Part shown: positions 6,762-40,801 of the stretch, piece by piece
How positions within the stretch are numbered: position 1 is the first letter of the stretch
Layout of the letters: each line of letters begins with the position of its first letter
IMG/VR virus record: IMGVR_UViG_2545824709_000014
Direction: 5' to 3' (one strand)
Length of the DNA: 41,579 bases
Source: a virus
Lineage: Duplodnaviria; Heunggongvirae; Uroviricota; Caudoviricetes
The notes under the pieces: model-generated
The model's database searches: none
Told to the model about the DNA's origin: nothing
The model's input: the letters and a program-made list of their open reading frames with translations, nothing else
Position numbers and translations under genes: made by a program

Positions 6762-6815
6762 TTTGTTGTCCTGTAAATTAGGTTCTGGCGCGGCATTCCG
6801 CGCCGTTCAGATACA

Positions 6816-7331
6816 TCAAAGGCCGAGGGCGTTGCGGTGCGCTTCCATCAGGTCCACACCGTCCACAATTTCCACCATGTTGATAAGGTCCACTTCATAG
6901 AGCACCTCACCATTGATGGTCAGCTTCGCGTAGCTGTTGGTACTGGTCACTTTGGTGGTGTTGCTTTCGCCCGTCTTCCACTCGCCGGAATCCACTTCTT
7001 TGTGACGTCCACGCACGACAAGCTCCACGGCCTGCACTTCCCCGGTATCGTCACGCTGGATAGAGCCGGTAAAGCGCAGCTGGATGCCATCCACCGTGGA
7101 TTTGCCCATCTGCTTAAACAGCAGCAGTTCAGTACCACCAATGGAAAATTCTGTATCCAGTGCACTGTCATCCAGTCCCAGATCCACATCCACCGCCCCC
7201 GGCATACCGCCGCCGCGATACTTCTCATATTTGCGGGTGAATTTCGGCAGCGTCAGCGACTCAACGATCCCCTGCCAGTTGTTCCCGTCGTTAAACAAGT
7301 TCAGATGTTTTAATTTACGTGGTAAAGCCAT
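6816..7331 (-). CDS. FII: Tail tube protein FII
   Basis: 171 aa; synteny FI-FII-E; size as P2 gpFII. Confidence 0.8.
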   Translation of the reverse strand: MALPRKLKHLNLFNDGNNWQGIVESLTLPKFTRKYEKYRGGGMPGAVDVDLGLDDSALDTEFSIGGTELLLFKQMGKSTVDGIQLRFTGSIQRDDTGEVQAVELVVRGRHKEVDSGEWKTGESNTTKVTSTNSYAKLTINGEVLYEVDLINMVEIVDGVDLMEAHRNALGL

Positions 7332-7340
7332 GTTGTCCCC

Positions 7341-8513
7341 TTACGCGCTGACCTGGCTGGCGAAATTCACCAGGTACTGATCGGTGATGCGCTGGCGCAG
7401 CATCAGATTTTCAAGTGGCGGCACTGGCGTGTAGTCGTAGTCGATGGTGAGTTTTCCGGCTTTAAGCGTGTCTTTGTCGTTCACCGACTCGTCCAGCCAG
7501 CAATCACCACCAATGAGATAGCCCTGACTGACCAGGTTGCGCATTTTGGCGCGGATACCTTCGATAATATCGCGGGCCAGCGACGGGTTAAGCGGTTTAT
7601 CCACCGCCCACATGTGTGCTTCTGCCATCGTGTCCATCAGCACCTGCGCCGTGCGGGTGTAGTTTTCGAAGACAAAGAGCGGGTCATCACTCAGGCAGCG
7701 GGAACCCCAGAAGCGGAAACCGTCTTTACGCACAAGCGTGGTGACGTCGTTCTGGTTAAGCAGTCCCGCATCAGTTGCCGGGTCCTGCAGATCCCAGAAC
7801 ACATCAGCAGAAATTCCGGTGACACCGTTCACGCCCACGTTGGACAGGCTTTTGTGCCATCCGGTCTGCTCATCAATTTTGGCGCGCAGACCGAGCGCAC
7901 GGGCGGTGGCATAAGCCGTTGCTTCGGCATTCAGCACCGTGTCCCAGCCAGTAAAGTCGGGCCAGATCAGCATTCCTTCACGCTGACTGAAGTTTTTACG
8001 GTAAGTGATTGCTTCCTGCACCGTCTTGCAACCATACGCTGACAGGTAAGCAAACCCACGCAGGCTTTGCGCCACGCTCAGCAACTCAGTAGCTACCGCC
8101 TTCGTGTCGTGACCTGGCACGCCGAGAATGCGCGGTTTAACGCCGAGCTGTGACTGGGCAGATAACAGGGCTTTCATGCCTGTTTTTTTACCTTCAGCAG
8201 TCACTGCGCCGATGATATTGGTCGTGGTTTCTTCTTCCGTTTCACCCTGCGGCACACGCACAACAACGGTCACGGGTTTTGCCTGGTCAGCGATGGCGTC
8301 CAGCGAACGGGCCAGCGTACCGGACTCACCCGCTTTACCGCTGGCAGTCAGCACATCAGTGATCAGCACGGGTTTATTAAGAGGAAACATTTTTGCATCG
8401 GCATCATCGCCCGTGCAGACCATACCCACGATGGCGGTGCTCACCGTGGTAATGGATCGGGTGCCTTCGTTGACTTCAACAACGCGCACCCCGTGGTGGT
8501 AATCCTGAGCCAT
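7341..8513 (-). CDS. FI: Contractile tail sheath protein FI
   Basis: 390 aa; position and size as P2 gpFI. Confidence 0.85.
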
Positions 8514-19394: not shown

Positions 19395-21161
19395 ATGAAC
19401 ACCACACTGACACCCGCAGATCTCGATCCCCGTCGGCAGGCCATGCTGCTGTACTTTCAGGGATACCGCGTAGCCCGCATTGCTGAAATGCTGGGCGAGA
19501 AAGTTGCAACCGTTCACAGCTGGAAAAAACGCGACAAGTGGGGTGACTATGGGCCGCTGGATCAGATGCAGCTCACCACCGCCGCACGCTACTGCCAGCT
19601 CATCATGAAGGAGCACAAAGAAGGGAAAGATTTCAAAGAGATTGACCTGCTGGCGCGCCAGTCTGAGCGCCACGCGCGGATCGGCAAGTTTAACAATGGC
19701 GGCAACGAAGCCGACTTAAACCCTAACGTCGCCAACCGCAACAAAGGCCCGCGCCGTCAGCCGGAAAAGAATGTCTTCACCGATGAACAGATTGAGAAGC
19801 TGGAAGAAATCTTCCATTCCTCCATGTTCAACTACCAGCGCCACTGGTGGGAAGCCGGAAAAACCAACCGCATCCGCAACCTGCTGAAGTCACGCCAGAT
19901 CGGCGCGACCTTTTACTTTGCCCGTGAAGCCCTGATTGACGCCCTGCTTACCGGACGTAACCAGATTTTCCTTTCCGCCAGTAAAGCACAGGCCCACGTC
20001 TTTAAGCAGTACATCATCGACTTCGCCAAAGAAGTCGAGGTGGAGCTGAAAGGCGATCCGATGGTGCTTCCTAACGGGGCCACGCTTTACTTCCTCGGCA
20101 CCAATGCCCGCACGGCCCAGAGTTACCACGGCAACCTGTATCTGGATGAATATTTCTGGATACCGAAATTCCAGGAGCTGCGCAAAGTGGCTTCCGGTAT
20201 GGCTATTCACAAAAAATGGCGACAAACCTATTTTTCCACGCCATCCAGCCTGACACACAGTGCTTATCCGTTCTGGTCCGGTGCGCTGTTTAACCGTGGG
20301 CGCAACAAAGCCGATAAGGTGGACATCGACCTGTCCCACAACAATCTGGCCCCCGGCTTGCTTTGCGCAGACGGGCAATACCGCCAGATAGTCACCGTGG
20401 AAGATGCGGTGCGCGGCGGCTGTAACCTGTTCGACCTCGACCAGCTACGCATGGAGTACAGCCCGGACGAATATCAGAACCTGCTGATGTGCGAGTTCGT
20501 GGACGATCTCGCGTCCGTGTTTCCGCTCAGCGAGCTGCAGGCGTGCATGGTGGACAGTTGGGAAGTCTGGACCGACTTTCATGCACTGGCCCTGCGCCCG
20601 TTTGGCTGGCGCGAAGTGTGGATCGGTTATGACCCGGCAAAAGGTACACAGAACGGCGACAGTGCCGGATGCGTGGTGGTGGCTCCGCCAGCCGTGCCGG
20701 GCGGCAAGTTCCGCATTCTTGAGCGTCACCAGTGGCGCGGAATGGACTTTCGCGCCCAGGCTGACGCCATCAAAAAACTGACCGAACAGTATAACGTGAC
20801 CTATATCGGCATCGACTCGACCGGCGTCGGTCACGGGGTTTACGAGAACGTGAAAGCGTTTTTTCCTGCCGTCCGGGAGTTTGTCTACAACCCCAACGTT
20901 AAAAACGCCCTGGTACTCAAGGCCTACGACATTATCAGCCACCGCCGTCTGGAGTTTGACGCCGGGCACACCGACATTGCGCAGTCATTCATGGCAATCC
21001 GTCGCGCCACAACCGCCAGCGGCAACCGCCCGACCTATGAAGCCAGCCGCAGCGAAGAAGCCAGCCACGCCGATCTGGCCTGGGCAACGATGCACGCACT
21101 GTTTAACGAACCGCTGCAGGGCGAATCCGCCAATATCAGCAATATTGTGGAGATTTTTTGA
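19395..21161 (+). CDS. P: Terminase ATPase (large) subunit P
   Basis: 588 aa; divergent from O, overlaps the Q start; size as P2 gpP. Confidence 0.85.
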   Translation: MNTTLTPADLDPRRQAMLLYFQGYRVARIAEMLGEKVATVHSWKKRDKWGDYGPLDQMQLTTAARYCQLIMKEHKEGKDFKEIDLLARQSERHARIGKFNNGGNEADLNPNVANRNKGPRRQPEKNVFTDEQIEKLEEIFHSSMFNYQRHWWEAGKTNRIRNLLKSRQIGATFYFAREALIDALLTGRNQIFLSASKAQAHVFKQYIIDFAKEVEVELKGDPMVLPNGATLYFLGTNARTAQSYHGNLYLDEYFWIPKFQELRKVASGMAIHKKWRQTYFSTPSSLTHSAYPFWSGALFNRGRNKADKVDIDLSHNNLAPGLLCADGQYRQIVTVEDAVRGGCNLFDLDQLRMEYSPDEYQNLLMCEFVDDLASVFPLSELQACMVDSWEVWTDFHALALRPFGWREVWIGYDPAKGTQNGDSAGCVVVAPPAVPGGKFRILERHQWRGMDFRAQADAIKKLTEQYNVTYIGIDSTGVGHGVYENVKAFFPAVREFVYNPNVKNALVLKAYDIISHRRLEFDAGHTDIAQSFMAIRRATTASGNRPTYEASRSEEASHADLAWATMHALFNEPLQGESANISNIVEIF

Positions 21162-22210
21162 TGGGAAAGAGTAAGAAAAACCGCGCTGCGGCGACGAATC
21201 AGCTCAAGCATAAAAGCCAAACTTCAGCCGAAGCATTCAGCTTCGGTGATCCCATTCCAGTACTTGACCGCCGCGAACTGCTGGACTATGTGGAATGCGT
21301 ACAGACAGATCGCTGGTATGAGCCGCCAGTAAGCTTTGACGGACTGGCGCGCACCTTCCGCGCTGCCGTGCATCACAGTTCACCAATTGCGGTGAAATGC
21401 AACATTCTGACCAGTACCTACATCCCTCACCCGCTGCTCAGCCAGCAGGCTTTTTCACGTTTTGTGCAGGACTATCTGGTATTTGGTAACGCCTACCTGG
21501 AGAAACGCACGAACCGCTTCGGTGAAGTTATCGCCCTTGAGCCTGCTATGGCAAAATACACCCGACGCGGGTTAGACCTGGATACCTACTGGTTTGTGCA
21601 ATACGGTATGACAACCCAGCCGTATCAGTTCACGAAAGGCAGCATTTTTCATCTGATGGAACCGGATATTAATCAGGAGATCTACGGCCTGCCCGGCTAT
21701 CTTTCTGCCATTCCATCCGCCCTGCTCAACGAATCCGCCACGCTGTTCCGCCGTAAGTATTACATCAACGGTAGTCATGCAGGCTTCATCATGTACATGA
21801 CCGACGCCGCGCAGAATCAGGAGGATGTGAACAACCTCCGCAACGCGATGAAAAGCGCCAAAGGTCCAGGCAACTTCCGCAATCTGTTTATGTACTCGCC
21901 TAACGGCAAAAAGGACGGACTTCAGATTATCCCATTGTCAGAAGTCGCGGCGAAGGATGAATTTCTTAATATCAAGAACGTGAGTCGGGATGACATGATG
22001 GCAGCGCACCGCGTGCCGCCTCAGATGATGGGGATTATGCCTAATAATGTTGGGGGGTTTGGGGATGTGGAGAAGGCGAGTCGAGTGTTTGTTCGAAATG
22101 AATTAATGCCTTTACAAAAACGATTACAGGAATTTAATGAATGGTTAGGAATTAATATTATCCATTTTGAAAAATATAACTTAATAAACGATGACCCACA
22201 ATCAACATAG
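21158..22210 (+). CDS. Q: Portal protein Q
   Basis: 350 aa; translationally coupled to P; the last ~40 codons are AT-rich, unlike the rest of the gene. Confidence 0.8.
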   Translation: MMGKSKKNRAAATNQLKHKSQTSAEAFSFGDPIPVLDRRELLDYVECVQTDRWYEPPVSFDGLARTFRAAVHHSSPIAVKCNILTSTYIPHPLLSQQAFSRFVQDYLVFGNAYLEKRTNRFGEVIALEPAMAKYTRRGLDLDTYWFVQYGMTTQPYQFTKGSIFHLMEPDINQEIYGLPGYLSAIPSALLNESATLFRRKYYINGSHAGFIMYMTDAAQNQEDVNNLRNAMKSAKGPGNFRNLFMYSPNGKKDGLQIIPLSEVAAKDEFLNIKNVSRDDMMAAHRVPPQMMGIMPNNVGGFGDVEKASRVFVRNELMPLQKRLQEFNEWLGINIIHFEKYNLINDDPQST

Positions 22211-22225
22211 ATAAAGCTTAATAAA

Positions 22226-22242
22226 GGAGGGGGAACCCCTCC
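22226..22242. terminator. Stem-loop between convergent Q and the S8 peptidase gene
   Basis: GGAGGGG-gaa-CCCCTCC perfect inverted repeat; T-rich flank on the minus strand. Confidence 0.5.
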
Positions 22243-22248
22243 ACATTG

Positions 22249-24456
22249 TTAAGTACGTAACATAATTTGCTGTTGAACTTGGATAGGCTGTAAGGTTTGA
22301 TATTTCTGCCTAATTAGGTTATATAAATCCGGCATTTCTTCAGCAGATAAAGTCACGACAAGAACATATGGTAGTTCTTCTAACTCGTCAACATCAATAG
22401 GCATACCACAGTCTCTACCATAGTAGATAATATCAAAGCATGGGTTTGTCAGCTCATTCGGTTTAAATTTGTGTTCACTTCTTAACGTAGTCTCCCATTT
22501 ATGTGCATCAACACGTTGCTCATTTTCATCTGCATAAACATTTTTTAGATTAAAAAGAGGAAACGTTAACCCGGAACTATCTGAAACACCTTTTCTCATG
22601 GTTACTTCTAGACCGCTTCTTGTATAATTCAAAGGATGTTCCGCATCTACAGGACTGGAAAAGCAGAATGTCGCTCTTAAATTTACACATCCACGCATAG
22701 GTACATCTGGAAACGGAATAGGTGCTCGCATGTGTTGTGATGGTTTTAAAGTACCTTGATATATAACTTTAACTTCATCATCATCACAAAATATTACTTC
22801 ACTAAGATCATGAGGAAATCGTCCCCAACCAACTTCAGCACGATTGATATTATTGCTCTCCGCATGATGTATAAGCAGAGCTTTAGCCGTAAGTGGTGTA
22901 ATGTTGTAATTTAGAGAAGCACTTAACGCGATTGCTTGCCTCAGGACTAATGGAGCTGAAAAGCTAGTCCCCGCAGTGCGGGCAAGACCATTAACCATAG
23001 GGCTGTATACCTGGAATGGCTCATCAGAATGTCCTCCAAATGCAACTCCATCAGGCTTCACAAAGCCAGGGCTTCGTCCAGGACCAATACAACTGTAAGA
23101 ACATCTTTCCCAACTATCAGATAAAGAGGTTGCTGCACCTACTGACAGACCATTAACTAAATCAGCAGGTGGTTGAATTCGATTTAACTTGGCAGGCAGC
23201 TGACCATCATTTCCAACCGCGACAGTACAAAGTGTTTCTCCTGATGCAAGTATCTCCTCAAGAGTTGAGGTCCACACATGCACGTCATCGTCATCAACAG
23301 GTAATCTAGGTCCTAAGCTCAGATTGATATAATCATATTTTTTTTGTTCTAATACACTTTTAATACGGATCAGAACGTCAAAAAGATCGACATCTGAGTT
23401 ATTAACATTGGAATCCAGTACACGATAATGGTCAATATTACAATAAGGAACACTTAATTTTTCCGTTTCAGAGCCAAGAACACCAAATAACACAGTAGAG
23501 GTGACATCCTGTCCATGAGAAAGAAGTTTTGCATTAGTACTAGCATTACCGTTGAAAGTGTACTCTGTTACCCAAGGATTGAAATCATCGATCCCCAATC
23601 CACCATCGAATATGGCAACCTTTATATGTGGGTTTACCGCTCCTTCAGATGGTAAACTAAGGTTAGATGTTTGAATCACAGAACGTGATATAACAGGCTC
23701 ACTTAGCCTTAATTCAGGAAGTTCTCTCAAAGTCCTGAGAAATGAAAACTCTGCAACTTTTAAAGCTACATCTTTACTAGCCTTAATAGGCATAAAGGTT
23801 AGCCCCTTAACCTTTATACTTCTTGCCTTATCTATAACAGCACCATTTTGCGAAGCAAAAACTTCAAAACTATCGACAATAGAGGAACTTGTATCAGGAG
23901 TATGTAAGGCGACCTCAATACTCATAACTTCATTGCTATTAATCGTTTTTACTTTATCTGAAACTTCCAGTATTGAAATATTTTCTAAGGTGACAAAATC
24001 ATTTTGCTGCCCTTTCGTTAGGGTATCTTGATTTACAGAGTCTAAGAATGATTGAAAACTTTCTTTTTTGCCAGAAACATAAATACACGCTGTAGTGTAT
24101 TCCTCTTTTCGCCCTCTTTTTTTAATATCTTTTCTAGGTTTTACTTTTACAGCCTTACTGCCTATGCTTTCTAGGGAAAATCGCTCAAAAAGACTTACTG
24201 GAAAATAACTTTTTGCTAAGAATGCCGGATGCAAAACAAATTTTGCTACAGCCTTACCTTCAGGCATTGCTAACAATGGAAGGGTATTAATTTCCTCAAT
24301 CAACTCTTCCAGTTGAGCAGATATCACTGGTTTATTTTCTGAATAAGAGTAAGGTTTATTCTTTTCACCTCCACCTCTGTTAAGTTTAACAGGGTTAGTT
24401 AGTGTTTCACCATAGCCAAGAAGCATATTTTTATCATTCATTGTCTTCATCCTCAA
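22249..24456 (-). CDS. Subtilisin-like (S8) serine peptidase with long N-terminal extension; candidate IetS-like defence protease
   Basis: 735 aa; S8 triad motifs VAIFDGGLG (Asp), SHGQDVTS (His), GTSFSAPLV (Ser); AT-rich; coupled to the upstream ATPase gene. Confidence 0.7.
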   Translation of the reverse strand: MRMKTMNDKNMLLGYGETLTNPVKLNRGGGEKNKPYSYSENKPVISAQLEELIEEINTLPLLAMPEGKAVAKFVLHPAFLAKSYFPVSLFERFSLESIGSKAVKVKPRKDIKKRGRKEEYTTACIYVSGKKESFQSFLDSVNQDTLTKGQQNDFVTLENISILEVSDKVKTINSNEVMSIEVALHTPDTSSSIVDSFEVFASQNGAVIDKARSIKVKGLTFMPIKASKDVALKVAEFSFLRTLRELPELRLSEPVISRSVIQTSNLSLPSEGAVNPHIKVAIFDGGLGIDDFNPWVTEYTFNGNASTNAKLLSHGQDVTSTVLFGVLGSETEKLSVPYCNIDHYRVLDSNVNNSDVDLFDVLIRIKSVLEQKKYDYINLSLGPRLPVDDDDVHVWTSTLEEILASGETLCTVAVGNDGQLPAKLNRIQPPADLVNGLSVGAATSLSDSWERCSYSCIGPGRSPGFVKPDGVAFGGHSDEPFQVYSPMVNGLARTAGTSFSAPLVLRQAIALSASLNYNITPLTAKALLIHHAESNNINRAEVGWGRFPHDLSEVIFCDDDEVKVIYQGTLKPSQHMRAPIPFPDVPMRGCVNLRATFCFSSPVDAEHPLNYTRSGLEVTMRKGVSDSSGLTFPLFNLKNVYADENEQRVDAHKWETTLRSEHKFKPNELTNPCFDIIYYGRDCGMPIDVDELEELPYVLVVTLSAEEMPDLYNLIRQKYQTLQPIQVQQQIMLRT

Positions 24457-25516
24457 CCGTCAAAACCTTACGTACTTGTGACCTTGAAATCCCCAAATCT
24501 AAAGCGATTTTTCTTTGTGATACATTGTTGTTTGACATGTTTTTTATAACATCATCAAGTGACACGCCATCTAACAACTCATCAATTAAAGCTGAACTTA
24601 AAGGAATATCTTCTATAATGGCATTTCTTTTAGCTTGATTTATAGCTCTCTCAAGAACTGCATATGAAACTTTTTCGAGTTTTGTAGCAATATAGTACGA
24701 TAAGCTATCTCCAATATTTTTAGAACAGAGATATCTTCTCATTAGGTCTTGTGTTGGATATTCAAAATCAATAACTCGATCGAATCTTCTCCATGCAGCA
24801 GGATCAAGCAGCTCCGCATGGTTAGTTGCTGCTATAAGAACAGACGTATTTGGCCATTCATCAATTGCTTGCAATAATACTGTAACTAATCTTTTTAGTT
24901 CTCCAACATCTGTTGCATCATCCCTTTTTTTAGCAATCGCATCAAATTCGTCAAGAAGCAGTACACAAGGGAATGACGAAGCATAATTGAGGACTGCCTT
25001 AATATTATTACCCGTTTTCCCCAAGTAGCTACTCATTACACTTGCGAGATCTAATGTTAACAATGGCATATCGAGTTTAAAAGCGAGCCACTTTGCAGCC
25101 AAAGTCTTCCCCACACCGGGTGGTCCTCCCATAAGAAGAGATTTGGACGGATGCAACCCTTCTTTATAAAGGCGTTCTTTCATTTCCCACTCAGCCACAA
25201 ATCGATTCAGTTGAACATCAGTTTTTGTTGGCCAAACAGGTTCAACATCAATGACCACAGGATATGTTTCAACTAGCAGCTTTTGTCTTGTATCCGCATC
25301 AACAGGTGTTATTTTAGGAACAACTGGATTAGCCCTTTCGACTGCAATTGCGCCACCTGTATTAATAAGTAAATCTTCTAATTTACCCGCTAATTCAGGA
25401 GATTCTTTTTTTAGTTTTTTTGCCATAATCCGCAACCGCATGAGGAGACTTTCCCTCTTCCCGGTAAGAGCATCACTGACAACATCAATGAGCATTTCGT
25501 TTGTAACGTTTATCAT
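24434..25516 (-). CDS. AAA+ ATPase with C-terminal HTH-like tail; candidate IetA-like defence ATPase
   Basis: 360 aa; Walker A GGPPGVGKT, Walker B VLLLDEFD; C-terminal QRKIALDLGISRSQVRKVL; AAGGGTGG SD upstream. Confidence 0.7.
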   Translation of the reverse strand: MINVTNEMLIDVVSDALTGKRESLLMRLRIMAKKLKKESPELAGKLEDLLINTGGAIAVERANPVVPKITPVDADTRQKLLVETYPVVIDVEPVWPTKTDVQLNRFVAEWEMKERLYKEGLHPSKSLLMGGPPGVGKTLAAKWLAFKLDMPLLTLDLASVMSSYLGKTGNNIKAVLNYASSFPCVLLLDEFDAIAKKRDDATDVGELKRLVTVLLQAIDEWPNTSVLIAATNHAELLDPAAWRRFDRVIDFEYPTQDLMRRYLCSKNIGDSLSYYIATKLEKVSYAVLERAINQAKRNAIIEDIPLSSALIDELLDGVSLDDVIKNMSNNNVSQRKIALDLGISRSQVRKVLTVEDEDNE

Positions 25517-25707
25517 CTAACCACCCTTATGGCAAAACCGAACCACTTTTCAAACAATCATACACCAAAAAAACCTTTTTAAGGTAATTTTGAACCAAAA
25601 AAAATATTTTTAGCACCACAAATGCTCATAACAAAACCAGTGACACTTTTGTATAACAACTAAAACTACCTATCGACAAAAATTTAGCTAAACCTTTTCA
25701 GCGCGCG

Positions 25708-25726
25708 CTCGTATCCCCGCCACGCC
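25708..25726 (-). other. Candidate cos (cohesive end) site
   Basis: Minus strand reads GGCGTGGCGGGGATACGAG; the first 13 nt match the GGCG(A/T)GGCGGGGA start of the P2/186 cohesive ends as I recall them. Confidence 0.35.
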
Positions 25727-25930
25727 TACCCGCTTTATGTAGTGGTTTTCATGCACCTGCATGATCTACGCAAAAGCCCACCAGTTCTGGCGGGCCTTAG
25801 CAAAAACGATCCTCAAACGATCATGCGATCTCATGCGGCATAGACATGCACTACAGAGCTAACGCCTCGCAAGGGCTCGTTGTTCAACCTTGCTGACGCC
25901 AGAAGCAAGTTCAGACGCCAGCAACGTTTC

Positions 25931-26164
25931 TTAATGCAACCAGCTGTCGTCTTCCCACACTTTCTGCATAATTTTCATCACTTGTTTTCTTTCTTCGTCC
26001 AGTTGCAGTCCGGTAAGTTCCACACCGTTAGAGCTACCTTTGCGGATACGAATTACCGTTTTTGGATATAGGGGGTGCAGGTTGCGGTAAAGCTCGGACT
26101 CCAGAGCGTCCAGGGTAGACTGGCTAATCTTCTGCTCTTTATCGATCATTATTTCAATGCGCAT
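25931..26164 (-). CDS. DinI-like protein
   Basis: From the internal Met: MRIEIMIDKEQKIS...VWEDDSWLH resembles DinI (MRIEVTIAK...WESADDW); GAGGTGA SD upstream of that ATG; ORF track start is 26236. Confidence 0.65.
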   Translation of the reverse strand: MRIEIMIDKEQKISQSTLDALESELYRNLHPLYPKTVIRIRKGSSNGVELTGLQLDEERKQVMKIMQKVWEDDSWLH

Positions 26165-26174
26165 AAAAGTCACC

Positions 26175-26363
26175 TCAGCTGATGACATCCATTGAGCGGT
26201 TGTATTCGTGGGTTCTGATTTTTGCCATGAGTTCATCTGTTAGTTCAGAAACCCACTGCAAAGCCAGCCCCTTCTCTTCATCACTACACTCACTAGCCGC
26301 TACAAGCTTAAGAAAAAAATCAATGCGCTGGAGCTTCAAAGACTCCAAAAAATAATCCTGCAT
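26175..26363 (-). CDS. Small hypothetical protein, first gene of the putative SOS-controlled operon
   Basis: 62 aa ORF immediately downstream of the LexA-box-like dyad and upstream of the DinI-like gene. Confidence 0.45.
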   Translation of the reverse strand: MQDYFLESLKLQRIDFFLKLVAASECSDEEKGLALQWVSELTDELMAKIRTHEYNRSMDVIS

Positions 26364-26405: not shown

Positions 26406-26421
26406 CTGTTTATATTTACAG
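26406..26421. promoter_or_regulatory. LexA (SOS) box-like dyad CTGT-N8-ACAG
   Basis: caCTGTttatatttACAGta, with a second TACTGTATAC half-site just upstream; sits before the 62-aa/DinI-like operon. Confidence 0.55.
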
Positions 26422-26515: not shown

Positions 26516-28930
26516 TTAATACAGATCCCGCCACTTATCATCTTCCTGCAAACGCTGGTTCCGATAGAAGATACGCAGGCCTGCTCCTGACGGAATACTG
26601 CCGCCGCGAAGGAGTAAATCGACCTCTTTCTCGCTACCATCAAATCCTCTGGACTTCAGCTCATAGACGAGCTGCTGTCGCTGATGGTCTGTAATTCGCT
26701 GTTTGTAGTCTTTACGACGTTTCGGTTTCACCAGGCGTAACCTTGCAGCCAGTTCCCGGCGCTCTTTTTTGCTCATACTGTGCAGGTAATCGTGCAACTC
26801 CTTGTCATCCATGCGGGTAATGTCCGTTCTGGTATCCCCATCAGCTGATTTGTCTTTCCCTTGTTGGTTCAAATTTTCAGCAAGGGGACAGTTATTGCCA
26901 CGAGTCCAAGGGGCGCAAGCGCCCTGGTCGGCTGCCGCCTCCTGAACGTCAACGGCTTTACGAACCATTTTCCACTTCACTGCATGAGTGCAGATCTTGC
27001 CCTCTGCAATGGGTGACCAGATGCCATAAATACGAATACCGTGATCGCCATAGGCGGTCGGCTCTTCGTTGATTTCATAAGCGGTTCTGATGAGGTGATA
27101 TTTACGGGGAACCAGTACGCCGCCCTGCTTCATGATGTAGGTAGCAAAACAACCAGCATCAGCAGCAGCCAGAATGGCATCAAGACGCGGGTTATCCAGT
27201 ACTGGCGCACCTGCTTTTTTGTCACCCTGTTGCCTTGCCACCTGACCAGCCAGCAAGCGAAGTTCACGGTAAGCCTGACGTCCCGGAATACCAAAGAAGC
27301 GGAATTGCTGTACACGATGCAGAGACGCCCAGGCATTAACGTATTCAGCGTTATCACACAAGGATTTACCCGTTTCCTTACTGATCTCGCCAGCCAGACC
27401 ACGCCCGTCAATGTTCTTACTGATGTATTTCGCGATGTAGCTTGTCGGCGTTCCTTTGCGCGGGTTTATCAGCTCAGACTTAAAGCGTGGCTCCGTGTTA
27501 TTGCCCAGCTCCTCGCGGTCTTCACGGATGGCAAACTTACGCAGTAATGCAGTGATGGCGCGGCGGTCTTTTTTGCGCATGAAACACAATAGGTGCCAGT
27601 GAACGGTGCCGTCATGATGAGGCTCAGCCACCCGCACGCCATACCAGCGCAACCCGGCTTTATGCATAGCCTTACGAAATGCAGCAAACATGCCGACCAG
27701 ATAATCGCTGCTTTGTCTTACCGTCGCATTTGTCCAGGTCGGGTTGGGCCTGCCGTTATTTAGCGTGGAATGGAAACGTGACGGACAGGTGATGGTGTAG
27801 AAAACGGCGCAGTCACCGCGCATTTCCGCGATAAGCTCCAGACCTTTAACACAGGCCATCATCTCATTGCGGCGATGCGCAGGATTGCTGCTGCTGGCGT
27901 TTACCACATCCTCCATGTCCAGCGTGTCGCCGTCTTCGTTCACCAGTTCATGAGAACGGAAAAACTCTAGTGACTTGCGGCGCTGCTCACGTTTATGCAT
28001 CACGGCTTCATAGCTAACATAGGGAGATGCTTTTTTGCTGACCAGGCAGACAGCACGCAACTGCTCTTCCCGCCATTCGCAACGCATCTTCCATAATTTC
28101 CGATACCACCAGTCGGCGCACAACATACGCGCCAGCGAACCCGGAATGAGTTCATAGGGCACGGGTTTGCGGCGGTTTCTTTTCCGACGAAGTTGCTCAA
28201 ACGCAGGCGGTATGACATCCAGTCGCAGGGTTTCCGCTGCTACCTTTTCCCATGTCTTGCGGATTTCTTCTGGCTTAACATCATCGGTGGCATACAAATC
28301 GCCACAAGCTGCATCAAGGCACATGCTCATATGCGCAGCTACCAGGGTGGACAGGCGTTTTACCTGATCCTGACTCATTTCAGGCAGAATCAGCAGGCCG
28401 TCCAGCCCTTCATGGCTTGCCATAAAGCGAAAAGAAGTGGATAGCTGACTGTCGCGTACATGCTCCAGCCGTTCCAGACATGGCTTAATCGTCTTACGCA
28501 AATAGCGGGAATAAGCCTTTGGCCTGCCCAGGCTGCTGAAGTATTCAATACGTTGCATCAGCGGCTTGCTGATATGGGAAGGCTGGGCGTTAACGTCCGC
28601 CAGAATGACCATGTCTGGATTAAAACGCTGCTGCTCATGCGCCAGCTTTGCCCGGCTAATGAGCTTATCCTGCTCCATTTCGCGTTGGACAGGATCACGG
28701 GATTCATTAAAGAAATAACGCTCCCAGACCTGATCACTCAGTGCCTCGCGGCGCAGCTGTTCCTGCTCGTTATCGGTAGCGTACAGAGTGATCAGGTTTG
28801 AAAGCGCAGAAACCGGCGCAACTTCCGCCGGGTCCAGATAAGGGTTAATAACCTTTTTCGGGCTGTTCCATGAGAATGCTGCGGCGACCTCGTTAACGCC
28901 GCTGCAATTGTTCATATCGGCATGACTCAT
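26516..28930 (-). CDS. A: Replication initiation (rolling-circle nicking) protein A
   Basis: 804 aa; [12 protein letters not shown] active-site tyrosine motif typical of the P2 gpA family. Confidence 0.8.
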
Positions 28931-33386: not shown

Positions 33387-35144
33387 CTATTTCATCAAGT
33401 AATCCAATTCATCCTTCATAGGTATAACTTGCTCATAAAGTCTATGGTAGGATTTTCCAATTGCACCCCTAAATTGAATAAGTTTAGGGGAAAAGCTACC
33501 GATATTAATAATATGTTCTTGCGCTATACCAGGATATGGATCGATAAAAATAATCTCTGTCATACCTAACTGATAAGCTTTTTTAGCACAAAGTTCACAA
33601 GGGCTAGCTGTAGTATATAGTTTCCCTCCATTAATACCGACCCCACCATATTTGGCCAATTGCAAAAAAGCATTCTCCTCTGCGTGCAATGCACGGGTAT
33701 GCACTTGATTCCCTTTCTTTTCATCATCAAGGCTGTTGTGAATATCTTTAAAACAATATGGCAAATTAAGTCCTTTAAAAACAGTAGAACTTGAATCACT
33801 CGCCCTTATTTTTATTAAATTTTCTTTAACTTTACTCCTAAATTTTGTATTACTTCGTTCGTACAGGCTATATGTTCCCTCATCAAAATCATGCAATAAC
33901 CCATCAAATGACCTCATAGAACAAGGAACTTGACCTTTTGCTACATCGTTCCAACCAACTGACTTGATAGAGTTATCATTATCTGTCACAACCGCCCCTA
34001 CTTGCCTAGATATACATCCAGAATTTAGTTTTACAGTATATGCAACTTGCATAACCCTTTCCATGGCGGTAGGAGATATTAATCCAGGGTGTTGCATTAA
34101 TGATACATACCACGCAATTTGTGCTTTGAGAAAATTATTATTATCAAATTCTTTTTTAGGGTTAAAAAAATGTATATCTGAAATTTCAATGCATTTTTTT
34201 ACATTAGGATTAGTAAGATGATTATACTCGCCATCTCCTTTACCAGATTCTTCATCATTAATTTTTTTTATCTGTTCCTCTGAGAACTTATGTAATTTCT
34301 TTAAATATCTGGTTCGATGTTCATCTGGTGCATTTATAGAAACCAGATGGAATGCAGCATATCTATCTTTGAAGAATTTAGCTTCATACGGGTTACGTAT
34401 CGCATCAATGACTATATACGCTTTATTATTCTTTACTTTTCTAATTATTTTAATAACACGATTAATTGTTTCAGGTAAATGAAAAACAGCCTTTGGAATA
34501 AAGTCTTGATTTTCATAATCTACATCAACCTTCCCTATTCTTCTAATTGACTTTCCTGCTGACTGATATAGCTCAATATATAAACCTGGCTCTAGTTCAT
34601 TTAATTCCCTTTTAAAATCCCGTGTAAATTTTCGAGTAAGAGTTAATATCCTAATAAAGGTATCTTTCCCCCTGCCTTTAAAGTCAATCTCATCATCATG
34701 ATTAAGAAGATTTTTTATCACCTCAAGATATTTTATCTTCAACAAACTTTTAGCGAACACACCATTAACAACCAGTTTCTTGGCTGCCTTAAAGGAAATC
34801 GAATTTTCTTTTTTATCGGGGATTTTACTTGCAGAAAACTGAATGAATTTAGCTAAGGCCGATGGAGATAAAAGGAGCAAATATATTGAAATGAGATCAC
34901 TGACCTTTATCGAATAGAAGTTCTTCCAATGAGTCTCTGCAAAATTTTTTACTATTTCATAACGCCGCAAATCCAATCCTTTATAATACTCAGCCAAGAC
35001 GTTACTATCTGGAAAAGATATTTCTTTTTGTTCTAAAATATTTGCTGCAGTAGTACATCCTGAGCCAGTTCTCCCAGTTAAACCAATAAGAATAAATTGA
35101 CTATTTTCTAAAAAAAGCTCACTAATAAATTTGTGTTCTCTCAT
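33387..35144 (-). CDS. P-loop kinase-like domain fused to CMP/dCMP-type deaminase domain; candidate AvcD / defensive dCTP deaminase
   Basis: 585 aa; N-terminal P-loop GLTGRTGSGCTT; C-terminal zinc-deaminase signature HAEENA...SPCELC; AT-rich; lies between int and attR. Confidence 0.65.
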   Translation of the reverse strand: MREHKFISELFLENSQFILIGLTGRTGSGCTTAANILEQKEISFPDSNVLAEYYKGLDLRRYEIVKNFAETHWKNFYSIKVSDLISIYLLLLSPSALAKFIQFSASKIPDKKENSISFKAAKKLVVNGVFAKSLLKIKYLEVIKNLLNHDDEIDFKGRGKDTFIRILTLTRKFTRDFKRELNELEPGLYIELYQSAGKSIRRIGKVDVDYENQDFIPKAVFHLPETINRVIKIIRKVKNNKAYIVIDAIRNPYEAKFFKDRYAAFHLVSINAPDEHRTRYLKKLHKFSEEQIKKINDEESGKGDGEYNHLTNPNVKKCIEISDIHFFNPKKEFDNNNFLKAQIAWYVSLMQHPGLISPTAMERVMQVAYTVKLNSGCISRQVGAVVTDNDNSIKSVGWNDVAKGQVPCSMRSFDGLLHDFDEGTYSLYERSNTKFRSKVKENLIKIRASDSSSTVFKGLNLPYCFKDIHNSLDDEKKGNQVHTRALHAEENAFLQLAKYGGVGINGGKLYTTASPCELCAKKAYQLGMTEIIFIDPYPGIAQEHIINIGSFSPKLIQFRGAIGKSYHRLYEQVIPMKDELDYLMK

Positions 35145-35366: not shown

Positions 35367-35411
35367 ATGTAGGAATTTCGGACGCGGGTTCAACTCCCGC
35401 CAGCTCCACCA
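35367..35411. repeat. att core, right copy (duplicated 3' end of ssrA)
   Basis: 45 bp identical to 358-402; followed by its own hairpin and T-run, then a P4-type integrase. Confidence 0.85.
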
Positions 35412-35576
35412 CTTTTTAGTTGTTTGAAGTTCAATGAAGTCTACTAAGCCCACACAGCACAAGCTCTGCGGGCTTTTTTACGTCTATTGTCGTCCAGTGA
35501 GAATTGCTGAGAACTACGAGTTATGGCACCCTGAATGGGACCCATTAAGAAGGGTCCAAAAACCGAGGGTCCCAAA

Positions 35577-36806
35577 ATGGCAAAAATCGCTAAGAAGCTC
35601 ACTGACACTGAAATCAAAAGCACCAAGCCAGCCGATAAAGAAATCAACTTGTTTGACGGTGATGGTCTGATTCTACGAATCGCTCCTTTGGCGAAAGGAG
35701 GCAAGAAAAATTGGTATTTCAGGTATGCAGTACCAGTGAGCAAGAAAAGAACCAAAATGAGCCTTGGGACATATCCTCACCTTACCCTTGCAAGAGCCAG
35801 AGCCTTACGTGATGAATATCTCTCCTTTCTGGCAAATGGTGTTGATCCCCAAATCCATAACAACGATAAGGCGAAGGCATTAAAGAGTGCTACTGAGCAC
35901 ACTCTCCAAGCCGTAGCGCGGAAATGGTTAGATGAGAAGGTAAAGACATCAGGTATCTCACAAGACCATGCAGCAGACATCTGGCGCAGCTTAGAGAGAA
36001 ATGTCTTTCCCGGTCTGGGTAATGTCCCTATCAATGAGATCCGACCTAAGCTCTTAAAACAACACCTTGATCCTATTGAGCAACGAGGCGTATTGGAAAC
36101 TCTACGCCGTATCATTTCACGTCTGAATGAAATCTTCCGGTGGGCAGCTACTGAAGAACTTATTGAGTTCAACCCGGCTGACAACCTTGGTCAAAGATTC
36201 AGTAAACCAAAAAAGCAAAATATGCCTGCCCTTCCCCCAAGCGAATTGCCAAGGTTTATGGAATCTTTGACGAATGCGTCAATCCGGTTGGAAACACGTA
36301 TGCTAATTGAATGGCAATTGTTGACATGGGTTCGTCCGGGTGAAGCCGTTCGCGCAAGGTGGTCTGATATTGATACAACCAACAGCATTTGGAACATTCC
36401 TGCTGATTTCATGAAAATGAAAAAGCTTCACAAAGTTCCTTTGAGTAAAGAAGCTTTGCGCATCCTTGAATTAATGAAATCAATAAGTGGGCATAGAGAA
36501 TGGGTTTTCCCCAGCATAAAAGCGCCTCTTAATCATATGCATGAACAAACAGCCAACGCAGCTATCATCCGAATGGGGTTCGGAGGCGAGCTTGTAGCTC
36601 ACGGTATGCGTTCTATTGCACGAACAGCGGCAGAGGAGTCTGGTAAATTCAGAGCTGAAGTTCTTGAGGCAGCGCTTGCCCACTCGAAAAAAGATGAAAT
36701 TATCGCAGCATACAATCGTGCAGAATATCTGATAGAGCGACAGAGTTTGATGCAATGGTGGAGTGATTACGTTCAAGCTCAAAGATCAAATGCTCTGGTA
36801 GCCTAA
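35577..36806 (+). CDS. Tyrosine integrase, P4 family
   Basis: Start placed at MAKIAKKLTDTEIKSTKPADKE (GAGG 8 nt upstream), a typical P4-Int N-terminal arm-binding region; C-terminal HGMRSIARTAA...AYNRAEYLIERQSLMQWWSDY; ORF track start is 35535. Confidence 0.85.
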   Translation: MAKIAKKLTDTEIKSTKPADKEINLFDGDGLILRIAPLAKGGKKNWYFRYAVPVSKKRTKMSLGTYPHLTLARARALRDEYLSFLANGVDPQIHNNDKAKALKSATEHTLQAVARKWLDEKVKTSGISQDHAADIWRSLERNVFPGLGNVPINEIRPKLLKQHLDPIEQRGVLETLRRIISRLNEIFRWAATEELIEFNPADNLGQRFSKPKKQNMPALPPSELPRFMESLTNASIRLETRMLIEWQLLTWVRPGEAVRARWSDIDTTNSIWNIPADFMKMKKLHKVPLSKEALRILELMKSISGHREWVFPSIKAPLNHMHEQTANAAIIRMGFGGELVAHGMRSIARTAAEESGKFRAEVLEAALAHSKKDEIIAAYNRAEYLIERQSLMQWWSDYVQAQRSNALVA

Positions 36807-37332: not shown

Positions 37333-39099
37333 TTATGGTAGCATCATTGATACATAATCCACACCAATCCTTGAGCTATACTGAGACGCTATAGCCTGAT
37401 ATCTTTCTGCATAACCAGTTCTCAGTTGAGATTTAAGTTTGAGTCGGACAGGAACATTTTGCACGTTGCCATCCATATTACTTAAAAACACGGCAGAAAT
37501 AATATTTTTTTCTTCGCCATCAACTGTTGTTCCATGATTCAACACCACCATATAATCAACAACAGGAAGCGTTTTATCCCCTTCGAAAATAGAGAGATAT
37601 TTTCTTTGATTTTTATGCATTACATATATATATTTCGAATGTTCAGCAAATGGCAATGCTTTACTCTGACTGGCGTTAAAAAGCTCCAGAACTTTAATGA
37701 GCCTGTGCGGACTTAATCTTACATGGTGAGGGTCGTTACCCTGAGTAGGAACCAAATCACATGCCGCAGATACACATAAATACCATTTGTTCGACTCTGT
37801 ATCAAAGAAAATAGTGCCAGTAGAAATATGACCATCTTCAAAATTCTTTGAAGACAAATTCATATTTAAAGCATGATACATTTCGTGATAAGTATCATTA
37901 TTTGATGGCAGATCCATTTTTGAAGAGCAATATTGGAGCAATGCAGCAACTCCGCTGTTAGCGTATTCATTTGAATAGCTATCAAAAACACTTTTGATAA
38001 ATTCATCCAGCGTATTATTATTTTTAAGTCTTTGATAAAGCTCTTCTGATAAATTACCAAATACAAAGTCAATATTTCTACATCTAATATCAGGCGAGTC
38101 TGATTTTAATATCTCATTTAACCACGCAGCTTGACCGTAATGATCGTTAGCCAAATGATTTACAAAAGATAAAACCTCAGCTTCGATTGCATTCTGAATT
38201 TCAGATTTTATTAACTGATAATAAGATGGTTTCCATTCAATGAGAGAATCATTGAGAGTTTGCCAAATCCTATCTCCATCGTTTTCATGATCATCTTGAA
38301 CCTTATGAAATAGGGAGACAAAGATATTACCACATTGAATCCATTTTACTCCGCTTTCATCACCCCGAATGACATTGCCAGATGTGTTGCTAGAAATAAT
38401 TGCATTTCTAGACACAGCATATTCTGCAATCATTTTTGCAATGAAGTTTTTATCCTTTTGATCCTCCAACACAGCATCATCATGTATTAATCTTTTAATT
38501 CTTCTACAAGGCTTACTGTCTTTAATATAGGCTATTGTTTCATCTCTTGTGAGAGCTTTATTACCATTATCATTTAAGTTCGGTAATACAACGTCTTCCC
38601 AATAACTTTGGACATCTTCATTATCGTAGTCAATGATCAAGCTGTTGATATCCAGAGCACCTTTGAGAGTCGATGATATCTGCATCCAAACCGTTTCTAA
38701 ATTCTCTCTAGTATATATTACAATCATATTTAAATGATCGGAGTCTTTCAAATCTTGTAATAGTTTAAGTGTTTTATCAGGTGCATTATTATCAAGATGA
38801 TAATCTACAATAATAAGATCTGATTTTCTAATCCGATCCACATCGAAATTAACAGAACCATTGTCAACATCACAAATCATATTTTTAGATTGAAAAAAGC
38901 TCTCAAGAGTAGCGGCTCGTTTAGATGAGTCAATTTTGTTGTAGTCTAAATCAACTTCGTTATTCAACGCCCTGATTGATTCAGAATACGTCAGAAAATC
39001 GTCATCAATCATGACAACGGAACGAATTGCATTTTCGCAGAAAGTTTTCTGGACAAGAGAATTATAATTTGCCACTGTCATATTAGAACTCCACTCCAT
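37333..39099 (-). CDS. Receiver (REC)-like N-terminal domain fused to a ~450-aa domain of unknown function
   Basis: 588 aa; VVMIDDD acidic pocket, LIIVDYHLD candidate phospho-acceptor Asp, MIVIYT; start overlaps the upstream kinase-like gene by 17 nt; AT-rich. Confidence 0.6.
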   Translation of the reverse strand: MEWSSNMTVANYNSLVQKTFCENAIRSVVMIDDDFLTYSESIRALNNEVDLDYNKIDSSKRAATLESFFQSKNMICDVDNGSVNFDVDRIRKSDLIIVDYHLDNNAPDKTLKLLQDLKDSDHLNMIVIYTRENLETVWMQISSTLKGALDINSLIIDYDNEDVQSYWEDVVLPNLNDNGNKALTRDETIAYIKDSKPCRRIKRLIHDDAVLEDQKDKNFIAKMIAEYAVSRNAIISSNTSGNVIRGDESGVKWIQCGNIFVSLFHKVQDDHENDGDRIWQTLNDSLIEWKPSYYQLIKSEIQNAIEAEVLSFVNHLANDHYGQAAWLNEILKSDSPDIRCRNIDFVFGNLSEELYQRLKNNNTLDEFIKSVFDSYSNEYANSGVAALLQYCSSKMDLPSNNDTYHEMYHALNMNLSSKNFEDGHISTGTIFFDTESNKWYLCVSAACDLVPTQGNDPHHVRLSPHRLIKVLELFNASQSKALPFAEHSKYIYVMHKNQRKYLSIFEGDKTLPVVDYMVVLNHGTTVDGEEKNIISAVFLSNMDGNVQNVPVRLKLKSQLRTGYAERYQAIASQYSSRIGVDYVSMMLP

Positions 39100-40801
39100 T
39101 GAACTGGATCACAAAATTAGCGCCATCTTTTATTAAATAGTTATCGCCTTCATCAGGTTCTGAATACCATATTTTATGATGTGCAACAGCAAGGTTTTCT
39201 CGACATAGATACAGACCTACCCCATGTCCATTTGCTCTTTTGCTATAAAATAGTTCAAATAGTCGCGGGATATCATCGGTATCAATTGCCGGACCAGAAT
39301 TTGCTATGATAACCAAAGAATTCACAAAACCAATCTTTATGAGCCTATTATTTGACAGACTGACCCAATACATTGCATTGTTGATAATATTAGTAAAAAC
39401 AGGATAGATCCTTGATGGTATATCTGTTATTGCGATTTGCTTAAACTCTTCACTAAATTCAATAGTTATTCGTTGCCGTTCGAAACGCTCCCCAAAGAAC
39501 TTCAGGACATAATCCATGATATTTTTTCCAGTTATTCTCTGCCTGGATTGATAACCTGATATTTTCAAAGGTGATAAGAAACGTATTTGTTGAGTAAGCG
39601 ATCTGTGAGCATTTAACGCCAATGAAAAACCAGGGTGTTCTTTTACAGAAGTAGGAAGAGAGTTTAGTCCTCTGGTTACCATAGAATCCATTTCTTCAAG
39701 TTCATGAGATATTATCTCAACACTAATACCTAACTGTGCAAGCGCGTTTAAACTTTTAGCTTTTTCTTCAAAATATGAGCGTTCTTCTTCAGATAATGAG
39801 AATGCTGAATCTAAGTTTATACCTTCAAATAATCTATCGAGACCTTTTATTATTGATTGATATTTGAAAGTTAGGGTATCAACTGACTCAACATATAAAC
39901 TATCGAGCAAATTAAACACATTTTCAATTTGTGAATCATTATCTATTGAATCAACAACTGATATAGTTTTAGCATAATAATCACTTCGATCAACCTTTAT
40001 TTCATCGGCCCATTTTTTTAAAAGAGAATGTATCTTCTCCTCTATCGTGTTATTAAACTTAGTTAGTTTAGAATTAATAATACCTTGATTTTTTTCAAGG
40101 TGATTTTTCGCTGACAATGAAGGCTCAAGTTTATTTAATTCAGAATCAAGTTTATTAATTGCTAACTTCATTTGTAGAATATACGCAGAGAACTCATTAA
40201 ATTTATCTCTGTAGTCTCTATATTTCTCTTCATACATTCCAAGTTTTGGAGGTTTGATAGGCGTTTTAATTTCACTGCGCAACGCATCTAAGTTTGTAAG
40301 ATCACTGTCTATAATTTTAAGATAGTTTAAATCTAACGAACCATCAGTTTTATCAAGCTTAGTTTTCAGCCTTTTAACAGCCTCCAAGGAAGCATCAAGA
40401 ACTGGTGTCTGATTCTTCAAAGCTTCTGAAAAACTTTTTTGTGTTGATTTTCGAGCTTGTTGTTGAGCAGATTTTCTTAACTCTTTTTCACGCTTAACTT
40501 GTTCTAAAAGCTCTTTACGGTCATCAGAACGTGAACCAAAAAATCTATCAGCAAGTTCAGTTAACAAATTAGATATAATAGTTTTCAGTTCTCTTGCAGC
40601 CTGGTTTCTTATGAATCCCTCTCTCCCCGACTTATCTTTCAGCTCTTTATTACTGGATTGAGTAATTCCAATATAACCAAAAATCCTTCTATTAGACCAA
40701 TAATATCGCCCTGCATTCCATGAACGTCTTTCTTCTATCTGGAAGAAATCATTATCTACTCGACCATAAGGTAATACTCTCAAGCTATCCCTAAAAATCA
40801 T
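39083..40801 (-). CDS. Histidine-kinase-like protein (coiled-coil N-terminus, H-box, C-terminal GHKL ATPase); possibly 5'-truncated
   Basis: 572 aa; H-box-like ISHELEEMD; N-box FTNIINNAMYW; G-box-like ANSGPAID and GHGVGLYL; reading frame stays open upstream of the first ATG into the IS3 end. Confidence 0.6.
   Translation of the reverse strand: MIFRDSLRVLPYGRVDNDFFQIEERRSWNAGRYYWSNRRIFGYIGITQSSNKELKDKSGREGFIRNQAARELKTIISNLLTELADRFFGSRSDDRKELLEQVKREKELRKSAQQQARKSTQKSFSEALKNQTPVLDASLEAVKRLKTKLDKTDGSLDLNYLKIIDSDLTNLDALRSEIKTPIKPPKLGMYEEKYRDYRDKFNEFSAYILQMKLAINKLDSELNKLEPSLSAKNHLEKNQGIINSKLTKFNNTIEEKIHSLLKKWADEIKVDRSDYYAKTISVVDSIDNDSQIENVFNLLDSLYVESVDTLTFKYQSIIKGLDRLFEGINLDSAFSLSEEERSYFEEKAKSLNALAQLGISVEIISHELEEMDSMVTRGLNSLPTSVKEHPGFSLALNAHRSLTQQIRFLSPLKISGYQSRQRITGKNIMDYVLKFFGERFERQRITIEFSEEFKQIAITDIPSRIYPVFTNIINNAMYWVSLSNNRLIKIGFVNSLVIIANSGPAIDTDDIPRLFELFYSKRANGHGVGLYLCRENLAVAHHKIWYSEPDEGDNYLIKDGANFVIQFNGVEF

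Follow-up and report, generated by a model that had tools for sequence, protein, structure and literature searches.

The 41,579-nucleotide (nt) stretch of tailed-phage DNA analyzed here (IMG/VR virus record IMGVR_UViG_2545824709_000014; hereafter, the window) contains a P2/186-like prophage of ~35 kb integrated at ssrA. Between the portal gene Q and the cohesive-end site (cos) of this prophage lie two genes, ietA and ietS, that encode an AAA+ ATPase and a protease of the S8 (subtilase) family (Table 1). The ATPase gene comes first, and the protease gene is adjacent to it and co-oriented. A first reading of the bare sequence (the original prediction) had described two coupled, AT-rich genes on the minus strand, and this description holds: both open reading frames (ORFs) are present, and the G+C content (GC), computed directly, is 0.381 in the cassette versus 0.556 in the late-gene backbone (0.35-0.42 over both genes in sliding windows versus ~0.55 in phage late genes). 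The predicted limits of ietA also stand, while the start of ietS had to be revised. Read from a TTG at 24456, ietS would overlap ietA by 23 nt. RefSeq calls an ATG at 24441 (i.e., a protein beginning MNDKNML...), and 31 of 31 aligned homologs share this start; on that comparison, the ATG at 24441 almost certainly displaces the TTG. With the start moved, the overlap between the ietA stop and the ietS ATG shrinks to 8 nt (ATGAATGA). Because the ietS ATG sits inside this stop overlap and is preceded by a GAGGA ribosome-binding site, the two genes are translationally coupled. The geometry of a 360-amino-acid (aa) ATPase and a 730-aa protease is identical in loci from Yersinia and Serratia. Upstream of ietA there is a GGTGG ribosome-binding site, and a ribosome-binding site is conserved at this place across the three genera.

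Both proteins are recognized by profiles of a known defense system. IetA matches the PADLOC IetA model PDLC02196 (E=6.7e-84; residues 7-355 on positions 5-371 of a 374-position profile), and IetS matches the PADLOC IetS model PDLC02197 (E=1.8e-48; residues 29-622 of the 735-aa ORF), with five more IetS models also matching. Pfam reports AAA and Peptidase_S8 only (Peptidase_S8 at E=3e-17), and in the NCBIfam library the anti-phage families IteA and IteS are the only specific matches. By profile, adjacency, gene order and motifs, which are the features used in PADLOC/DefenseFinder-type definitions, the pair is ietAS-type at the level of sequence. The original prediction had proposed this identity, and the search against IetA and IetS models has now borne it out. 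A close known comparison is the common E. coli variant of ietAS at the P2 hotspot, whose proteins are equally long and whose IetA likewise matches PDLC02196 best; the identity of its IetA to the one described here is, however, only 46-47%.

We assessed conservation of IetA in an alignment of 30 homologous sequences, with overall identity across the family ranging from 45 to 87%. The Walker A and Walker B motifs anticipated from the sequence are present at residues 131-138 and 186-192, and K137 and T138 of Walker A are among the invariant residues. In the pore-loop-1 region, S162, S163, L165, G166, T168 and G169 are invariant, and the aromatic position is occupied by Y, F or L. The predicted structure consists of a three-helix bundle (residues 6-53), a linker (residues 54-75) with a predicted local distance difference test score (pLDDT) below 50, an AAA+ core and lid (residues ~97-302) and a helix-turn-helix (HTH)-like unit (residues 320-358). 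This model superposes on FtsH, VAT, Vps4 and spastin and also on bacterial Trip13, and the PADLOC TRIP13 models match the sequence too. With its Walker A and B motifs, pore loop 1, sensor 1, arginine fingers and an FtsH/Cdc48/Vps4-like fold, IetA is a classical-clade AAA+ protein.

Two regions outside the ATPase core of IetA are also conserved. An HTH-like tail at the C-terminus had been noticed in the original prediction, and its presence is supported by Pfam HTH families that match many IetA homologs, by a confident three-helix model (residues 320-329, 334-341 and 345-358; pLDDT ~88) and by concordant sub-threshold matches of 18 HTH families to residues 328-352 of IetA. Within this unit, I337 is invariant, S333 and R335 are nearly so, and the segment SQRKIA..LG.SR is conserved. 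The second region is the motif PVDxD[TS]R, in which P71, D73 and D75 are invariant and V72 and R77 nearly invariant. Its conservation makes it a candidate site of docking, contact or pseudo-substrate binding for IetS, possibly.

IetS has more than 1000 homologs, and the best 120 are almost all full-length (~730 aa); these 120 come mostly from Proteobacteria, plus one member from Leptospira and one from Sulfurovum. In an alignment of 32 sequences, the Asp, His and Ser of the S8 family, whose motifs had been recognized in the original prediction, are invariant, as is the oxyanion-hole Asn, and conservation extends to the N- and C-terminal regions. The N-terminal extension that had been put at ~250 aa exists; it is instead ~270 aa long, and it contains a prodomain-like module. 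In the AlphaFold2 model of IetS (pLDDT 82.2; predicted template modeling score 0.85), this module adopts a beta-alpha-beta-beta-alpha-beta order. The model superposes best on the pro-forms of subtilases and on isolated I9-type prodomains, and from the order of secondary structure elements we infer that the I9-type fold match falls on residues ~173-245. A second, similar module may be present at residues ~63-157 of the model. Sequence searches contributed little to the flanking regions: Pfam at E<=10 returned nothing for either the N- or the C-terminal region, a sequence search of the PDB found no solved IetS-like structure and only subtilisin E (E=0.003), and the N-terminal 270 aa searched alone against the PDB gave nothing meaningful (best E=0.32). 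The best structural matches of the IetS model are subtilases in which a retained prodomain serves as regulator, namely pro-subtilisin, PCSK9, clostridial CspA/B/C and Tk-SP. Unlike these, IetS has ~170 further N-terminal residues, a C-terminal beta-sandwich and an AAA+ partner, and, judging from its start and its cytoplasmic partner, would be cytoplasmic.

Table 1 Features of the ietAS cassette and its borders (positions in the window).
Feature	Position	Strand	Basis or remark
ietA	24434..25516	(-)	360-aa classical-clade AAA+ ATPase
IetA motif PVDxD[TS]R, residues 71-77	25286..25306	(-)	Alignment; end of low-confidence linker
IetA Walker A GPPGVGKT, residues 131-138	25103..25126	(-)	Invariant in 30 homologs
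IetA pore-loop-1 region SSYLGKTG, residues 162-169	25010..25033	(-)	Alignment
IetA Walker B LLLDEFD, residues 186-192	24941..24961	(-)	D189, E190 invariant
IetA sensor-1 ATNH	24818-24829	(-)	T231, N232, H233 invariant
IetA WRRFD, residues 242-246, arginine fingers of the second region of homology	24779..24793	(-)	W242, R243, R244, F245 invariant
IetA C-terminal HTH-like unit, residues 320-358 (...SQRKIALDLGISRSQVRKVL...)	24443..24559	(-)	Model and homologs
ietS	22249..24441	(-)	730-aa S8 subtilase; ORF, RefSeq start, PADLOC/Pfam profile matches
IetS prodomain-like module, residues ~173-245	23707..23925	(-)	Directly N-terminal to catalytic domain
IetS S8 catalytic core, residues ~270-550	22792..23634	(-)	Alignment; subtilisin E alignment
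IetS D279	23605-23607	(-)	Invariant, 32 sequences
IetS H309	23515-23517	(-)	Invariant, 32 sequences
IetS oxyanion-hole N411	23209-23211	(-)	Invariant, 32 sequences
IetS S493	22963-22965	(-)	Invariant, 32 sequences
IetS C-terminal beta-sandwich/jelly-roll, residues ~555-725	22267..22779	(-)	No Pfam family
Upstream region moving with the cassette	25517..25601	(-)	Yersinia DNA similarity starts at 25601 or 25590
-10-like TATGAT	25557-25562	(-)	TAnnAT kept in Yersinia and Serratia; within the upstream region
cos, 19-nt cohesive-end site	25708..25726	.	Match to P2 cos and to flanks on both sides
Left junction: AT-rich 3' end of portal gene Q	22119..22210	(+)	Similarity of relatives ends at 22119-22169
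GC-rich hairpin GGAGGGGGAACCCCTCC	22226..22242	(-)	Terminator scan; between convergent stops of Q (22210) and ietS (22249)

The prophage that carries the pair is bounded by two identical, directly repeated 45-nt copies of the ssrA 3' end (ATGTAGGAATTTCGGACGCGGGTTCAACTCCCGCCAGCTCCACCA) at 358-402 and 35367-35411; the transfer-messenger RNA itself, at 40-402, is the sole RNA family that Rfam reports in the window. The order around the pair is Q (21158-22210), cassette (22249-25601), cos and A (26516-28930). The cos site had been assigned in the original prediction, and the assignment proved correct: its reverse complement, GGCGTGGCGGGGATACGAG, aligns with the P2 cos, GGCGAGGCGGGGAAAGCAC, and its flanks are conserved. 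Judged against three relatives with the same flanks and different cargo, the variable region has its right junction at 25698-25701, i.e., 7-10 nt from cos on the portal side. The left junction falls within the 3' end of Q, where GC is 0.261 versus 0.513 for the rest of the gene. The last ~90 nt of Q vary between phages with different cargo, and cargo exchange thus rewrites the C-terminal tail of the portal protein.

The mobile unit itself is narrower (~3.35 kb) than this variable region. The same cassette occurs in a Yersinia island with 79% DNA identity; the similarity sets in at window position 25601 for one Yersinia locus and 25590 for the other and stops precisely at the stop codon of ietS (22249). 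The hairpin beyond that codon, which is terminator-like for ietS by its sequence, lies outside the cassette that is common to Yersinia. The Yersinia cassette and its promoter region (loci L006/L007, positions 4842-8193) are part of an island that also encodes an integrase and a Prim-Pol/PriCT_2/DUF927 primase and is probably a P4-like satellite, and the locus fits an exchange of cassettes between P2 and P4 hotspots. In a P2-like remnant in Serratia, the order is A, cos, ietA, ietS, an extra ORF and a remnant of Q. Full-length IetS homologs (35-43% identical) are also found on non-Ti plasmids of Agrobacterium, Rhizobium, Xanthomonas, Streptomyces, Vibrio and Acinetobacter. Among 5426 complete E. 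coli genomes, 10 contain the identical pair.

Phages related to this prophage carry other genes at the same place. Their flanks are 91-97% identical to those described here, and the cargo in between consists of Hypoth_Ymh, AIPR or retron reverse transcriptase genes. On these sequence comparisons, the ietAS cassette is swappable cargo of the cos-proximal P2 hotspot. The interval between cos and the portal gene is 3497 nt here, whereas in P2 and 186 it is ~170-180 nt and holds only a terminator; the accessory genes of P2 (old, tin) and 186 (tum, orf97) sit across cos, on its A side. The original prediction had remarked that the cargo sits on the Q side rather than at the tin/old position, which is correct relative to P2 and 186. 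To ask how the wider lineage is arranged, we surveyed at least 80 viral contigs that share this cos core, with Q and A located in each (the set was not dereplicated, so that the figures are indicative only). Among the 55 listed loci with Q, the portal-side gap was short and P2-like in 6, 400-1500 nt in 15 and at least 1.5 kb in 34, with a median of 1678 nt and ~45 different lengths. Because 49 of the 55 thus carry at least 400 nt of portal-side cargo, the placement is normal for the lineage. On the A side, half of the listed loci have only a ~790-nt dinI module. The ietA described here occurs in 1 of the 80 listed loci (L084). One Klebsiella phage, ST11-VIM1phi8.4 (L003), has portal-side cargo, an AIPR gene (2749-4491), together with A-side cargo, a 225-aa ORF (4767-5444). 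Since cargo can occupy both sides of cos at once, the gpA-gpQ hotspot comprises two insertion sites flanking cos.

The presence of this gene pair at this hotspot is already known. Rousset et al. 2022 (PMC9122126) defined the P2 hotspot as cos-proximal, from gpA to gpQ and spanning both sides of cos, a definition that does not separate the two sides, and the hotspot has been described again in a 2026 preprint. The raw accession list of the P2 hotspot table in Rousset et al. 2022 contains this exact pair (WP_001513123 and WP_001513122), which RefSeq also places at the identical locus in E. coli strain 127. In the hotspot table of that study the ATPase is listed as 'AAA/HTH_50'; the summary table, of which the part searched did not contain the sequence of this variant, ranks 'Peptidase_S8 | AAA' seventh with 400 occurrences, annotated 'ietAS (Gao et al, 2020)', and the P4 table lists 'AAA | Peptidase_S8, similar to ietAS'. 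Because standard defense profiles recognize the pair and its proteins are already tabulated, it matters little as a discovery. What the present analysis adds are the cassette boundaries, the statistics of portal-side cargo, the domain anatomy of both proteins and a protease without significant pairwise similarity to the founding IetS.

That founding pair was described on the plasmid pTiC58 as a plasmid-stabilizing toxin-antitoxin system in which the protease is the toxin and the ATPase the antitoxin (Yamamoto et al. 2009, as cited in PMC13069673). As in the prophage, the AAA ATPase gene of pTiC58 lies immediately upstream of the S8 peptidase gene. The two IetA proteins share 40% identity over 162 aa of the AAA+ core (BLASTP E=4e-43) and have the same best model, PDLC02196. 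In contrast, pTiC58 IetA has 328 aa and is without the C-terminal HTH, pTiC58 IetS has 836 aa and belongs to the profile clade PDLC02198/04233, and the pTiC58 genes do not overlap and are plasmid-borne rather than phage-borne. A tblastn search of plasmids with IetS at E<=1e-10 did not recover pTiC58, and the founding pair was located through annotation. The two proteases are linked through a shared profile only (PDLC02197, E=1.8e-48 here and 3.8e-12 for pTiC58). By these comparisons, the label ietAS is heterogeneous across clades.

Other systems resemble parts of the pair. ietHAS (Liu-DS4; Nucleic Acids Res 2026, PMC13069673) has an ietAS core, a protease needed for defense and an ietA that behaves as an antitoxin; unlike the pair described here, whose neighbors are Q and cos, it has a third essential gene, ietH, that encodes an SNF2-family helicase. 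The Trip13-HORMA module of type III CBASS is a functional analogy, with the differences that no HORMA protein or cyclase is present here, that the partner is a protease and that IetA is closer to FtsH, VAT and Vps4 than to Trip13. With regard to location, the old/tin cargo of P2 and the orf97 cargo of 186 are likewise non-essential phage-exclusion genes beside cos, between A and the portal gene; they differ from this cassette in lying on the A side rather than the portal side.

Homologous systems indicate what the pair might do. Defense by homologs requires protease activity, and plasmids with a mutated ietA could not be constructed (PMC13069673). The ietAS system of B. cereus acts by abortive infection and is toxic upon expression of YosG from SPbeta (10.1101/2022.08.27.505566), and ietAS has been noted as prophage-borne (10.1101/2022.08.21.504612). 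The anti-phage mechanism was nevertheless said in 2026 to be one that 'remains unknown' (PMC13069673), in agreement with the original prediction, which had called it unresolved. Our reading is a likely one: the pair is probably an ietAS defense cassette that serves as a toxin-antitoxin-like abortive-infection module of the P2/186-like prophage. The gene structure, family, intact motifs, model-level domains, cassette boundaries and hotspot location are direct observations on this locus; the toxin and antitoxin roles, abortive infection, the trigger, inhibition by a prodomain, unfoldase action and autoregulation by the HTH are carried over from homologs and the literature.

According to this reading, ietA and ietS would be transcribed together from a promoter that lies between cos and ietA, and their translation would be coupled. 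Toxicity would come from proteolysis by IetS, which would be a cytoplasmic subtilase, and the I9-type prodomain-like module suggests that the enzyme is probably synthesized as a pro-form that inhibits itself. IetA would use ATP to hold IetS inactive in uninfected lysogens, presumably as a hexamer with unfoldase or remodeler activity. In CBASS, Trip13 keeps HORMA switched off, and this serves as a model for the restraint of IetS by IetA. The C-terminal HTH of IetA would probably autoregulate the operon, as in type II antitoxins. A protein or process of a competing phage would then disturb the restraint, and freed IetS would cleave cellular and/or phage proteins so that infection aborts, which would shield the lysogen population and the resident prophage.

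Several observations weigh against this reading. Both proteins miss the equivalog cut-offs of NCBIfam, IetA with 247.7 of 510 bits against NF042959 and IetS with 122.8 of 900 bits against NF042956; the pair is accordingly homologous to the NCBIfam reference but not at equivalog level, although the IetA of the common E. coli P2-hotspot variant is also under the IteA cut-off (252 bits). The similarity between this IetS and pTiC58 IetS is not significant by BLASTP (E=0.043). As IetS is without significant pairwise similarity to the pTiC58 toxin, toxin-antitoxin behavior is extrapolated across clades, a reasonable but provisional step. With respect to regulation, all HTH matches in IetA itself are under the Pfam thresholds, a scan for consensus sigma-70 sites found none on the minus strand upstream of ietA, and a repeat search of 25480-25760 gave only short, weak repeats and no convincing operator. 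The empty promoter scan is the reason that cross-genus conservation was used, by which the TAnnAT -10-like element was found. Finally, an E. coli ietAS from ECOR52 gave limited protection alone (10.1101/2022.08.21.504612), and the searchable literature text contained no mention of these accessions and no experiment on this variant.

The position of the pair beside portal gene Q, together with the general precedent for partnering of AAA+ proteins with proteases, could suggest a housekeeping or phage-morphogenesis module (e.g., a head-maturation protease and its chaperone). Nothing else speaks for such a role, which is extremely improbable: close phage relatives are without the pair and carry other, unrelated genes in its place, the corresponding interval of P2 and 186 holds a terminator and nothing else, the composition is foreign, only the 10 E. 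coli genomes noted above carry the pair, the same cassette is found outside phages, and the profile matches are specific to defense models. Comparative genomics thus led us to reject a housekeeping or morphogenetic protease. A role in addiction is harder to set aside, and we consider it unlikely as the main function. In this case the pair would chiefly stabilize the prophage or mobile element, because loss of the element would stop the supply of IetA and free IetS. The first description of ietAS as plasmid-stabilizing on pTiC58 (via PMC13069673), the full-length IetS homologs on many plasmids, the cassette in an integrative island and the weak defense by an E. coli ietAS alone are all consistent with addiction. 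However, the alternative cargo at the hotspot is overwhelmingly made up of defense genes, protection against phages and abortive infection have been measured for ietAS homologs, and the lack of significant pairwise similarity to the pTiC58 toxin weakens this comparison as well. Addiction and defense are not mutually exclusive.

The remaining question is the direction in which IetA acts on IetS. Rather than restraining the protease, IetA could activate it, in that the AAA+ unfoldase would strip an inhibitory prodomain from IetS on infection and so turn on a silent zymogen. The prodomain-like module in the IetS model, the membership of IetA in a substrate-threading AAA clade with a conserved pore loop, and the tight co-translation of the genes are all compatible with an activator. 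The genetics of homologs point the other way, since construction of plasmids with a mutated ietA failed and, as relayed in PMC13069673, the ATPase was the antitoxin in the founding study; the failure to clone ietA mutants and the antitoxin role argue for restraint rather than activation. The homologs with this contrary genetics may belong to other clades, and even so we regard an activating IetA as rather improbable. An abortive-infection module in which IetA restrains IetS is thus the reading that we prefer.

The window holds further features that may bear on defense by this prophage and its neighbor. The same prophage encodes an anti-phage dCTP deaminase at 33387-35144 (-), which matches the PADLOC dCTPase model (E=2e-146) and bears the same name in RefSeq. 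At the other end of the prophage, between attL (the ssrA 3' end) and ogr (1392-1607), an AT-rich ORF of 237 aa at 576-1289 (+) has no Pfam or PADLOC match and may be further cargo. Upstream of two ORFs on the A side of cos, at 26175-26363 (-) and 25931-26236 (-), the sequence at 26406-26421 (CTGTTTATATTTACAG) fits the LexA-box pattern perfectly. The two are a 62-aa ORF and a DinI-family gene, an arrangement that mirrors the LexA-controlled p95-tum operon of 186; unlike in 186, no orf97-like gene follows. Another ssrA-type island follows beyond attR and encodes an integrase of its own at 35535-36806 (+), and the repeats of the ssrA 3' end together with this second integrase island indicate two elements integrated in tandem at ssrA. 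The second island contains overlapping AT-rich genes at 37333-39099 (-) and 39083-40801 (-), which encode a 588-aa protein with Response_reg_2 (PF19192, E=4e-31) and a 572-aa protein with HEF_HK (PF19191) plus HATPase_c. From its domains, this pair looks like a two-component-style conflict system; as PADLOC v2 has no match to it, it is a candidate defense system outside that library.

In phages of this cos lineage, cargo sits mainly on the portal side of cos and not on the old/tin side known from P2. The cassette has practical value in that it is compact (~3.35 kb), has a native promoter region and sharp boundaries, and is found in E. coli. Its domain anatomy (i.e., the prodomain-like module and beta-sandwich of IetS and the HTH and linker motif of IetA) points to specific mutants and assays. 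These features allow a tentative proposal, more speculative than the defense role itself, that ietAS in this clade may be a zymogen gated by an AAA+ protein. In this view, IetS inhibits itself as a pro-subtilase that would combine one or two I9-like prodomain modules with a beta-sandwich that binds substrate or trigger, IetA would be an unfoldase that binds DNA through its HTH, represses the operon and resets IetS continually, perhaps via the invariant PVDxD[TS]R motif as a docking or pseudo-substrate site, and a phage factor would break this cycle and license autoprocessing. If true, this would be the first concrete, testable mechanism for ietAS, and it would make the clade mechanistically distinct from the HTH-less founder on pTiC58, whose protease has no detectable pairwise similarity to this one.

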